From a virus: a DNA stretch of 64,000 bases. The DNA lies in IMG/VR virus record IMGVR_UViG_3300007735_000798, positions 1-64,000 of that record; one strand, given 5' to 3'. The position numbers and the translations under genes were made by a program. Shown here one piece after another: positions 50,287 through 59,181 of the stretch; the stretch's first letter is position 1, and each line of letters opens with the position of its first letter. Below the pieces are notes generated by a model, which ran no database searches, was not told the origin of the DNA, and was given only the letters and a program-made list of their open reading frames with translations.

Positions 50287-53200
50287 TTACGGTTTCGAAG
50301 GCGGAACTTTTATTCCCATTGCACTTTGTATTTCTCTAGTAATTCTTGGAATTTGTTTTTGAATTTCAGCCGCGACAGCTGAAGCTACATCTCCACCACT
50401 TTCGGCATTTACGACAAGATTAATTGGAGCATTTGTTGTATTTGCTATTGATGGTGAATTTATACCTTGATTATTTTGCATATTAGAAGCGTCTGTAGTA
50501 TTTTGTAAACTAGATAAGGAAGTATTAAGATTTTGAATTGCGCTTAGTAATGAAGTCAATGCGCTTGTATTTGTATCTAAACTTGATTCTATTTGCGTAA
50601 AAGACTGTTCTGAGACAGCAAAATTCGGAATATAACCACGACTCATTAATCCCGCAGATTTTTGTCCTATCATTGAGTCATTCAATGCTTTATCTAATCC
50701 GCCATGATCAGCTATTGCAGATGCAAATGTAGGTTGACTACTATTTCTAATATGTGGAAAAGGTTTAGTGCCATAAATAGCTTTATTACCACTAAGGCGT
50801 TCTTCAAGATCCATTACTGAATTTTTGTATGCAAAATTTGGAATAAAGCCACCAGCCAAATTATCAGGTGTGGTCCCAGGTGGTAGTTTACCACTTTTTA
50901 AAAGTTTCTCTTTTAATTTTAGAGTTTGTGCTTCTGCAAATACAGTTCCATTCGTTGAAGATATGAGATCTGGTATCATAGCACCAGTAGTTAGTAGATC
51001 TTTTCCAGCCCCAATACCTAGACTAGTAATCGCCCCATAAACAGCCGCTAATGGATTTTTTCCGATAGCTAGACCACTAGCGGCCCCACCAACAGCAGTT
51101 GAGAATATTTTTTCGAGTTGATCAATATAGGGGTTTTCCGATTTTTTTCCACCATGAAATAAATTATCTAATGCATATTGAGTACTAGCTTCCGCACCAA
51201 TACCAATGGCTCCAGATTTAAATATATTTTTAGCGCTATTCGCTACCGAAGCAAGTTTTGTTGTACTATTAACTTGGAATCTATTCCAAATATCTTCAAA
51301 AAATGGAATAAGGCTATCGAGAGTATCTTCTAATCCAATAGTTCTACCAAATTTCGCATTTTTATTTTCTTCTGCGAAATTTGGAATAAAGCCTTTTGCC
51401 ATACCTATGGCTTTTTGCATATTTCTTGTCAATACGGCTGTTTGACCACTTCCCCCAAAATTATCAACAAGTTTTTCTCCACTATTAATAAAAGCAGGAG
51501 ATCCATTTAAATTTGGAATAAATTGTGGTCGATCTCCAGGTTTTGCCCCTCCAACTCCACGACCGATATCTCGAGATTCTTTATTGTATCCAGGTAAAAA
51601 TCCTTTTGCATTTGATGTCGACTCTACAGATTTATATTTTGCTATTGGTATATAAGGAGTTGGATTTCCAGGCTCCCCTGTTCGTTCTAAAATTTGTTTT
51701 AATATATTGTTTGTAATATTAATTGCTTGTACCGTAGGATCGCTTGAAAGTATTATATCATCTTTATAACTTGTCAGCATCTTTTCTAATGCTTGTTTTT
51801 CTTTGGTGTCGCTTGTAGTTTTTATTTTATCACGAATTTCTTGTAACAGACTTTCATTTGTTACACCAAGCGCTTGCGCTACTTGGATTTTTGCAATGAG
51901 TTCTTCTCCACCCAGCGCTTGTGTTTGTTTTAATGCGGTTAGAAGCTCTGTTTTAAATTGATCAGGTAAATTTTGATTGCCTTGAACCTGTTTTGTCAAT
52001 AATTGTATTTTATTAGTAAGATTTTGAGATAAACCAGCTACAATTTCTTTATAAATTTGACTGTTGGCATCTGGTGTATATCCAGTAAGTTCTTGTAAAG
52101 ATTGAACATATTGTAAAGCATTACGTCCATATTTTGGTAATAATTCTTTTCTAGCTCTTTCTGCTTCTGATCCTTGATATCTATATTCACCAAATTGATT
52201 AGTTCTAAATACCCCTTTAGTATTTAATGCAGCAACTGTATTAGCTGACTTCGCAACTTTATCAAAAGCACTTTCTCCATATTTGGGTGGATTTATAAAT
52301 TCTTCAATGCCACCGCCAAAATTTTGAGCTTGTTTAATTGCATCCACAAGTCTTTTTTGAGTAGTTTCTTGTGCAAGTTTAACTTGTTTTTCTTGTAGCA
52401 ATTTGGCGGCTTCTTCCGCTTTATCATTTCCCTTAGATGTTATACCAATTAGCTCACTTAATTTGTCTTCAAGTGGTTTTCCAAAAAAACCAAGATTATT
52501 CAATAATGGAGTAAATATTTCCGATAAATATTCAGGCTGTAAATTTTTCTTATCTATAATTTCAGAGTTGATTTTTTCTATAAATGCGTCTATAACTGGA
52601 GATTTACCATTTTCTGAAATGTTAAGTCTAGTTCTTAAGTTTTTATCACTGTCTAATTGTTCTTTTGTCGGTAGGACAGCATCATTTATGGCTGTCGCCA
52701 TCTCAACCATTATATCATCAACTGATTGTTCAAAATCAATATTTAATTTTGCAAACTCAGATTTTAGTTCAAAATCTTTTGTCATGCGAGATTCCTGCCC
52801 AGTAAGTTGTGATATAAGTTGTGCTGGATTTGTAAATTGTTCAGTGTACGAAAATTCTCGAGCAAAACTTCTCTTTTTTTGTTCTATAACTATTGATTTT
52901 TTTGCCAAATCAATATTTTTTTGCAATGATTTAATCATTGCTTCATTAGCTTTAGCAGCACTTAATTGTGCATTCTCTGTATCTCTTAAGGCTTGTGCAT
53001 ATTGATTAGAAGATGTTACATTTTGTCTAGTAGCATAATTAGCATCACTAGCAGCCCTCTGAAGAACTATGAGTGTATCGAGATAATCCTGATTAGTTCG
53101 TTTTGCAGCATTTATGGTACTTTCTATAAATTCCGCGCTTCCTACTACACCTCCCAATGAGTCTTCTAATATTGTTTGTAAATCTTTAACTTTTTCTTCT

Positions 53201-59181: not shown

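Follow-up and report, generated by a model that had tools for sequence, protein, structure and literature searches.

A predicted tape measure protein of uncultured phages is an array of apparently exchangeable modules bounded by one conserved peptide

Introduction

Tape measure proteins (TMPs) with embedded enzymatic domains are known, among them T5 pb2, the Rpf-motif protein of mycobacteriophage TM4, SPbeta YomI with its lytic transglycosylase/peptidase, and TP901-1 (PMC5099701). Here we describe a giant TMP gene in a 64-kb window of the virus record IMGVR_UViG_3300007735_000798; the window is the whole stretch of DNA that was analysed, and the full record spans 104.7 kb and is 69% complete. 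The predicted product, P0001 (2964 amino acids, aa), consists of a TMP core followed by a string of modules, each bounded by the same short peptide, G[FY][IV]PN[FY]A. Like the domain-carrying TMPs, P0001 has a TP901-type core (26-27% identical to SPbeta YomI over aa 8-450), hydrophobic segments and extra domains placed in a ruler that would be expelled at infection. Known examples hold cell-wall hydrolase domains from known families, one or two per protein, whereas P0001 strings together up to about ten unrelated modules that belong to no family, are basic, and resemble nucleic-acid enzymes rather than muralytic ones. Moreover, these cassettes are exchanged, each is bounded by the same peptide, and cultured phages match the core only.

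Several unrelated domains in one phage polypeptide are also found in polyvalent proteins, which combine 2-15 unrelated conflict-type domains (ADP-ribosyltransferases (ARTs), nucleases and others), are predicted to enter the host with the DNA and are sometimes processed (Iyer et al. 2017, PMC5512222). Polyvalent proteins are packaged in the head or transferred by type IV secretion, are built of catalogued domains and often include a zincin MPTase for processing; that paper mentions neither TMPs nor a conserved linker (PMC5512222). P0001, by contrast, is a TMP that lacks an MPTase and carries uncatalogued domains with a fixed peptide at their junctions. The catalogued polyvalent set (MPTase, ParB-like, ArdC and others) does not describe P0001, a tail protein that has no Pfam match beyond PF10145 and no HExxH motif.

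Two further systems bear comparison. T4 Alt is an ART of the R-S-E type (PMC5512222), and in the reading proposed below P0001 would resemble Alt and the other T4 internal proteins in bringing virion-borne enzymes into play before phage gene expression. Each of the T4 proteins is a head protein in its own right, and gp21, the prohead protease, reads a short signal in it for targeting and cleavage; in P0001 the domains are concatenated in a tail protein for which there is no known protease, and one of them, M5, is a possible ART. The effectors of Streptomyces Sle1-type contractile injection systems are built on a TMP-derived scaffold with exchangeable functional domains, are loaded into the tube and are ejected (PMC13277306). 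They share with P0001 a TMP-type scaffold that carries exchangeable domains. They differ in that they are cargo of actinobacterial injection systems with one variable C-terminal domain, are not the ruler of an infectious phage, and have no reported repeated junction motif.

The junction peptide

A regular-expression scan of P0001 found 11 strict copies of G[FY][IV]PN[FY]A, at aa 542, 615, 826, 1067, 1220, 1461, 1612, 1669, 2597, 2778 and 2849, with a degenerate copy, GFLPGYN, at aa 2527 and a weaker one, QFIPNLN, at aa 2554. These are the positions given in an earlier note on this DNA (the original prediction), including the degenerate copy at 2527, and the seven intervals between the first eight copies (66, 204, 234, 146, 234, 144 and 50 aa) are exactly those reported there. 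The motif, strict or loose, occurs in no other frame or place of the 64-kb window or of the 104.7-kb genome, and its recurrence in P0001 far exceeds chance.

To define the family, aa 540-1700 of P0001 were used as query, which returned 118 giant TMPs; with P0001 these make 119 family proteins (P numbers). The homologues are 1630-3628 aa long, nearly all contain PF10145, and wherever one is named it is named as a TMP. A profile scan of IMG/VR returned 363 relatives, and results at the level of loci (L numbers) refer to 80 loci read among those 363. In both sets, the 118 giant TMPs and the 363 IMG/VR relatives, the motif is present in 0-11 copies, always within the TMP. The TMP genes of the 80 loci hold 272 copies, and a six-frame reading of the 1.17 Mb of DNA around them gave none; two copies of L070 that appear to fall outside lie within the L070 TMP. 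Strict copies range from 0 to 11 per TMP across the 118 homologues, with P0001 at the top of the range.

The logo of 476 sites, in percentages, reads [A81/S16]-x-G100-[F71/Y28]-[I80/V18]-P100-N98-[F91/Y7]-[A84/S10]. That is, A or S stands two residues upstream of the motif Gly in 97% of sites, the aliphatic position is V or I in 98%, the two aromatic positions are F or Y in 99% and then 98%, and the last is A or S in 94%. The flank has a Gly at -4 and an upstream stretch rich in K, R and G. Variant clades have GYIPRFA or GFVPNF[NVISD], and the constant core of the motif is G-aromatic-aliphatic-Pro-x-aromatic. Judged from these sequences, the nine-residue peptide [AS]xG[FY][IV]PN[FY]A is the universal joint in the predicted TMPs of hundreds of environmental phages. 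The sub-clade in which Asn is replaced by Arg (GYIPRFA) comprises P0076, P0114, P0118 and P0119, and P0111 has GYIPDFA.

Codon use in 206 motif copies from 74 genes equals the background of those genes (Pro, 50% CCT and 44% CCA; Gly, 48% GGA and 34% GGT). With synonymous codons at background, conservation acts on the peptide, and the DNA is not constrained beyond the amino acids; a DNA-level recombination signal was rejected on the same evidence.

The modules and their exchange

The TMP gene and its parts are listed below in order from the N-terminus, with window coordinates. M0 is the core, M1-M12 are the pieces between and after the junction motifs, and percentages are identities. Local confidence (pLDDT, predicted local distance difference test) comes from an AlphaFold model of aa 536-1226 (691 aa; modules M1-M4 and five junctions), built on a curated alignment and with a mean pLDDT of 77.5; junctions 6-11 and the degenerate copy are placed by the motif scan.

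50287-59181 (-), TMP gene (P0001, 2964 aa); open frame with PF10145 and 118 giant TMP homologues
57559-59181 (-), M0, conserved TMP core, aa 1-541; 40-88% across the family
58261-58836 (-), PF10145 inside M0, aa 116-307; E=1.9e-27
57538-57558 (-), junction motif 1, GYIPNFA, aa 542-548; pLDDT <50
57340-57537 (-), M1, 66-aa small alpha+beta module; pLDDT 70-88; best relative P0006, 97%
57319-57339 (-), junction motif 2, GYIPNFA, aa 615-621; pLDDT <50
56707-57318 (-), M2, 204-aa alpha/beta module with D640...D661...D690-A-K692; pLDDT 80-93; best relative P0013, 74%
56686-56706 (-), junction motif 3, GFIPNFA, aa 826-832; pLDDT <50
55984-56685 (-), M3, 234-aa module with E946...D967...D989-A-K991; pLDDT ~90; best relative P0006, 86%
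55963-55983 (-), junction motif 4, GFVPNFA, aa 1067-1073; pLDDT <50
55525-55962 (-), M4, 146-aa module, all-helical in the AlphaFold model; best relative P0002, 92%, where it sits in a different order
55504-55524 (-), junction motif 5, GFIPNFA, aa 1220-1226; pLDDT <50
54802-55503 (-), M5, 234-aa module with Y-R1291-G, S1361-T-S and E1452-x-D; best relative P0004, 99%
54781-54801 (-), junction motif 6, GFIPNFA, aa 1461-1467
54349-54780 (-), M6, 144-aa module; 86-92% identical to modules in ~12 other TMPs; best relative P0003, 92%
54328-54348 (-), junction motif 7, GFIPNFA, aa 1612-1618
54178-54327 (-), M7, 50-aa small module; best relative P0065, 100%
54157-54177 (-), junction motif 8, GFVPNYA, aa 1669-1675
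51604-54156 (-), M8, 851-aa motif-free stretch; best relative 37%
51583-51603 (-), degenerate junction motif, GFLPGYN, aa 2527-2533
51394-51582 (-), M9, 63-aa small module; related to the M1 type (C4 to C36, 89% probability)
51373-51393 (-), junction motif 9, GFIPNFA, aa 2597-2603
50851-51372 (-), M10, 174-aa Gly/Ala-rich module, aa 2604-2777 (from sequence)
50830-50850 (-), junction motif 10, GFIPNFA, aa 2778-2784
50638-50829 (-), M11, 64-aa small module; 65-71% identical to first-array modules of other TMPs
50617-50637 (-), junction motif 11, GYIPNFA, aa 2849-2855
50290-50616 (-), M12, 109-aa C-terminal end piece; kept at the C-terminus of family TMPs

The core has ordinary relatives. PF10145 (phage minor tail/TMP core) is the sole Pfam match in the protein and scores 96.9 bits against a cut-off of 33.2, and among 50,697 records of cultured phages similarity is confined to aa 8-450, at 26-27% identity to SPbeta YomI-type and other Bacillus, Lactococcus and Listeria TMPs. 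Since both the cultured matches and PF10145 are confined to the N-terminal part, the core is that of an ordinary TP901-type TMP and the remainder is without a known match; we thus assign P0001 as a predicted TP901-type TMP. A hydrophobic Gly-rich segment lies in M0 at aa 409-435.

For module clustering, every TMP was cut at the junction motif and the resulting pieces were clustered. The family has a constant frame, made, from the N-terminus onward, of the core (~540 aa), a small module (55-90 aa), a module of ~230-270 aa, a small module (50-75 aa) and a long piece of 740-1750 aa, the membrane and coiled-coil part; the C-terminal end piece completes it. The ~230-270-aa frame module, to which M3 belongs, is the commonest, with 162 pieces. 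Between these frame parts lie unrelated modules of 120-300 aa that are present, absent, duplicated or reordered, and a subset of the family has a second insertion site ahead of the last 110 aa. There are thus two hot spots that accept extra, unrelated, independently folding modules. P0001 has the architecture F0/F4/F11/F1/F16/F19/F8/F3/F2/F29/unique/F7/F9, so that at least 10 distinct module families stand in one chain. The order F1/F16/F19 of P0001 is swapped to F1/F19/F16 in P0002, and P0004 has F5/F19. Module content therefore differs between homologues through insertions, losses and changes of order, where identical content would have counted against the original prediction. One correction concerns the M3 type, which is a near-constant core part of the family and not variable cargo. 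Simple tandem duplication was rejected as the origin of the array, the modules being mostly unrelated to one another.

The identities listed above differ sharply along the chain, from 99-100% for M5 and M7 to 37% for M8, the motif-free ruler part. Pairwise alignments end at the motif or within a few residues of it: in the array, 64% of the ends of high-scoring segment pairs (n=400) lie no more than 12 aa from a motif centre, against 14% expected. Homology stopping at the motif makes it a true module boundary, one of the roles that had been proposed for it, and the pattern points to recombination between phages that swaps modules at the motif joints. Consistent with this mosaicism, global MAFFT alignment of full-length TMPs misplaces modules 2, 5 and 6, even the 99%-identical one, and curated rows or fragments were used instead.

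The joint can also be lost. In about eight TMPs, M6 runs straight into the next small module via '...FLSGQVNDAIKRE...', without the junction motif, and the FLSGQVNDAIKRE junction looks like a 6-residue deletion of the motif. The motif-free fusion, to a small module of the 'RE..AG.P...NP.G.GV.N..DEP' type, is present in the 200-aa form of module F8 ('FLSGQVNDAIKRE') in P0003, P0005, P0007, P0008, P0010 and P0018.

In the AlphaFold model, M1-M4 form confident domains (blocks of pLDDT 80-96), and all five modelled junctions have pLDDT <50 and no secondary structure. The motif therefore belongs to neither neighbouring domain as a strand; it is a short linear motif within a disordered linker. The original prediction had described the modules as globular rather than helical ruler sequence, and this stands for M1-M4 (domains at pLDDT 80-95); the model of aa 1213-1700 (modules 5-7) reached a mean pLDDT of 41.

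The remaining pieces are of several kinds. The small modules M1, M7, M9 and M11 fall into two or three types that are loosely related to each other. Alignment shows M7 to be a shorter version of a module present across the family, 'RE..AG.P.S.I...NP.G.GV.N..DEP'. In M8, a hydrophobic segment rich in Gly and Ala (aa 1779-1804) precedes sequence rich in A, Q, L, E and K, and M8 is likely the membrane-active and ruler part. M10 has no homologue among the TMPs of the 119 family proteins and the 80 loci. It is rich in glycine-zipper runs of the GxxxG/A type (GAIGIGAEA, AVGGAASGLAIG, SLGIGAG), which point to a cassette that inserts into membranes, close to the tail-tip end of the protein.

Modules M2-M7 each carry a net charge of +4 to +13, which fits nucleic-acid binding or an acidic tube lumen. 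Cysteine is absent from 115 of the 119 family TMPs (1600-3600 aa), against 0.2-2% in neighbouring genes. Proteins that pass in an unfolded state through narrow channels and the oxidising periplasm typically avoid Cys. P0001 also has only 10 His residues.

Enzyme-like modules

Among 44 diverse relatives, which have a mean identity of 16%, M3 retains seven invariant columns (GxxFE, D, F, the K of [DE]xK, and a later K), represented in P0001 by E946, D967 and D989-A-K991. In the model these fall on a helix (399-417), a short strand (432-433) and the next strand (452-455), so that the E, D and (D/E)xK elements appear in the helix-strand-strand order expected of PD-(D/E)XK enzymes. M2 has D640, D661 and D690-A-K692, and the M2 and M3 families match in hhalign with 94-96% probability, which identifies M2 as an apparent distant paralogue of M3. 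Profile evidence did not follow: none of 45 M3-family members has a Pfam match, a PDB profile search with M3 gave nothing better than E=0.25, Mrr_cat has no match in the genome, and the best ESM atlas score was 0.77. We put the chance that M3 and M2 are nuclease-like at about even.

YRG, S[TS]S and Ex[DE] are conserved in M5 members that are only 30% identical, a pattern like the aromatic-R-G, S-T-S and E-x-E series of R-S-E ARTs. The acidic motif, however, is ExD in P0001, and it follows STS by ~90 aa, with only 8 aa left to the junction. Its neighbours by ESM features, which serve as leads only, are clusters with ADPrib_exo_Tox (20% of members) and Mod_ADP_RT, at scores of 0.89-0.91. M5 has no Pfam match at E<=10, the genome gave no match to PF03496, phmmer against 1.84 billion protein representatives found TMPs only, phmmer against PDB found nothing relevant, and tblastn against cultured phages stayed negative up to E<=10. 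An ART of the R-S-E type is a possible, though on balance doubtful, identity for M5.

Pfam and PHROGs, run on every module, gave nothing beyond the core. Foldseek (PDB, BFVD) and VIA gave no match with the 691-aa four-domain model as query, a form that weakens single-domain matches. A search for shorter proteins as stand-alone module homologues found only truncated TMPs, and a search for loci related to M6 found only two known TMP loci. Of the enzyme motifs proposed originally, then, the conserved residue patterns of M3/M2 and M5 are real, and no nuclease or ART match was obtained in Pfam, PHROGs, PDB profiles, Foldseek or VIA.

Role of the junction peptide and the modules

The reading of the joint that we favour, at slightly less than an even chance, is that the peptide docks a chaperone or other partner on the unfolded chain. 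The whole TMP chain would lie in the tail tube in a non-native state and be expelled ahead of the DNA, so that the basic, Cys-free modules would be the first to reach the envelope or the cell, where, once delivered, they would act on nucleic acids or host factors. On the unfolded chain, the junction peptide would serve as a short linear motif for recognition in trans, at which a chaperone could dock and handle the chain one domain at a time. One candidate would be a host periplasmic chaperone of the SurA/FkpA kind, a peptidyl-prolyl isomerase (PPIase), acting during entry; an alternative would be the phage's own tail assembly chaperone, acting during loading. As the motif is confined to the TMP, either its reader is specific for the TMP or the motif acts only where the TMP goes.

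Two observations from the literature suggest the host candidate. WEYIPNV is a phage-display ligand of the P1 PPIase domain of SurA, with a dissociation constant of 1-14 uM (PMC11401910), and its YIPN is identical to the core of the GYIPNFA form of the motif, with a hydrophobic residue next in both; in this reading both peptides would be recognised on unfolded periplasmic chains. Genome entry of HK97 needs the TMP, PtsG and the periplasmic chaperone FkpA jointly (Cumby et al. 2015, as summarised in PMC5099701). Relatives that lie in bins of diderm lineages only (see below) agree with a periplasmic partner. The likeness has limits: WEYIPNV is a synthetic peptide selected for Escherichia coli SurA, and of the SurA consensus Ar-X-Ar-X-Pro (Ar, aromatic) only the Ar-X-Pro half is invariant in the TMP motif, the first Ar position being S, A, K, R or G and the X an invariant Gly.

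Several points weigh against the docking reading and the delivery that goes with it. With the SurA consensus only partly matched, the YIPN identity could be coincidental. A conserved seven-residue site in a linker would suit a protease equally well, and the loss of the motif at some junctions, with the neighbouring modules retained, means that no single copy is essential. By established geometry, a tail tube has a lumen of 4 nm. Three copies of folded 200-aa domains exceed it, and an unfolded or staggered state has to be assumed; only cleavage into single-file pieces or non-native storage would explain how three chains of globular modules fit. None of the enzyme assignments has a fold or hidden Markov model match in Pfam, PDB profiles, Foldseek or VIA. 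Finally, the delivery reading presupposes modules that are present in the virion, ejected as cargo and active.

The strongest competitor, which we nevertheless consider unlikely, is a polyprotein in which a dedicated protease cuts the TMP at each motif, during or after tail assembly or after ejection, so that core, modules and ruler are stacked and released in turn. TMP processing is known for lambda gpH, which yields H*, and for T5 pb2. Besides this precedent, viral polyproteins likewise have folded domains joined by disordered linkers in which a short peptide is strictly conserved, loss of one site would just fuse two modules, and free domains of up to ~25 kDa would go single file in the 4-nm lumen. 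However, the 69%-complete genome has no Peptidase_S78, ClpP or S77 match, and cutting would part the conserved core from its ruler. The absence of the motif from all other proteins makes a general virion protease unlikely. A zincin autoprotease was rejected, there being no HExxH in the TMP, and Asn-dependent self-cleavage or isopeptide chemistry was rejected on account of the GYIPRFA and GYIPDFA variants, which make any chemistry that requires Asn unlikely.

Less probable again is a role in assembly only, with the motif binding the tube lumen or forming a trimer clasp and the modules being bulky spacers, idle in the host, by which tail length is tuned or the tube plugged. Confinement of the motif to the TMP would fit such a role, as would the conservation of tube and chaperone-position genes alongside the motif and the 1630-3628-aa range of TMP length across the family. 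Yet the irregular spacing of 50-240 aa is unlike a periodic tube, and the motif stays invariant while its putative phage partners diverge to 30%. Moreover, spacers would not hold invariant acidic/Lys triads at 16% identity, nor would they be swapped at 99-100% identity among phages whose ruler is 37% identical. That the 21-27 nt of motif DNA are kept merely as microhomology for cassette shuffling, the peptide having no function, would agree with mosaic break points that coincide with the motif; given the background codon use in the 206 copies, and a peptide that is near-invariant across TMPs only 40-50% identical, we regard this as very improbable. Some other role of the peptide takes up what little weight then remains.

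A bolder form of the docking reading, which we think improbable as a whole though deserving mention, is an 'effector train'. A single tail protein would carry a shufflable string of enzymes, in the manner of a secretion system, each flanked by a peptide that recruits a host chaperone or translocation factor (SurA/FkpA type); ahead of the DNA, the enzymes would be drawn out of the tube, be kept in solution and regain their folds in turn, in the envelope or the cytoplasm. If true, this would be a phage counterpart of effector delivery by type III and type VI secretion systems and of the linear-motif-driven import of nuclease colicins.

TMPs are usually seen as rulers or channel formers with at most one cell-wall hydrolase. 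In hundreds of environmental phages, the TMP instead carries variable, uncatalogued and apparently catalytic domains joined by one invariant peptide. Domain-carrying TMPs as such are already known; a cassette-array TMP with a universal junction peptide is, by our comparison, an undescribed architecture, and the motif strings were not found in the full-text literature. At least 10 new domain families are defined here, and in one of them a nuclease-like triad is invariant. With the junction peptide as a signature, such TMPs and their cassettes can be searched for, and as a short synthetic ligand it can serve to find its partner; the old question of how TMPs get across the envelope, and of the factors that handle them in it, becomes open to test. 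Delivery of the modules, should it occur, would be a new route by which a phage takes over its host or counters defences before expressing its own genes, and would offer a natural scaffold with which foreign proteins could be loaded into phage tails.

Tail-gene neighbourhood and host

The genes upstream of the TMP are the following.

59220-61041 (-), genes of 266 aa and 339 aa directly upstream of the TMP; homologues in 76-77 of the 80 loci
61371-62507 (-), conserved gene of 378 aa; homologue in 76 of the 80 loci

Weak matches to PF18906 (Phage_tube_2) in 3 of 18 members of the 378-aa family (best E=0.005) indicate that this gene probably encodes the tail tube protein. The 266-aa and 339-aa genes stand in the position of tail assembly chaperones, and from this position we infer their role. 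The place of the TMP gene, after the tube-like gene and these two, agrees with its assignment. Family searches with these two genes and with the tip genes gave no match, and PDB profile searches with two upstream genes gave none either. A canonical frameshift between the 266-aa and 339-aa genes was rejected, since no slippery site is present and the open second frame extends upstream by just four codons.

The source of the window is an uncultured siphovirus-like phage with a probable Gram-negative-type host. Eight relatives (L082-L089) occur in species-representative GTDB genomes, all of them in metagenome-assembled genome bins of diderm lineages (Proteobacteria, Flavobacteriales, Marinimicrobia (Neomarinimicrobiota) and Halobacteriovorax) and none in an isolate. 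Bins of diderms only fit a Gram-negative-type host, with the proviso that binning of phage contigs is unreliable and that these may have been co-binned with their hosts.

One homologue departs from the usual gene structure. P0051 (2597 aa, from a 104-kb ENA contig) has no TMP core and begins within a small module, 20 aa ahead of a junction motif. Either the TMP gene is split or frameshifted here, or the gene call is an artefact.

Six genes upstream of the TMP (59220-63989, minus strand) are kept in 65-77 of the 80 loci and belong to no PHROG or Pfam family. The tail-tip genes downstream of the TMP are kept in at most ~30 loci and are replaced elsewhere. The G+C content is 34-35% in the TMP region (50000-60000) and 24-26% in the tail genes just downstream (44000-50000), a marked compositional step within one structural operon.

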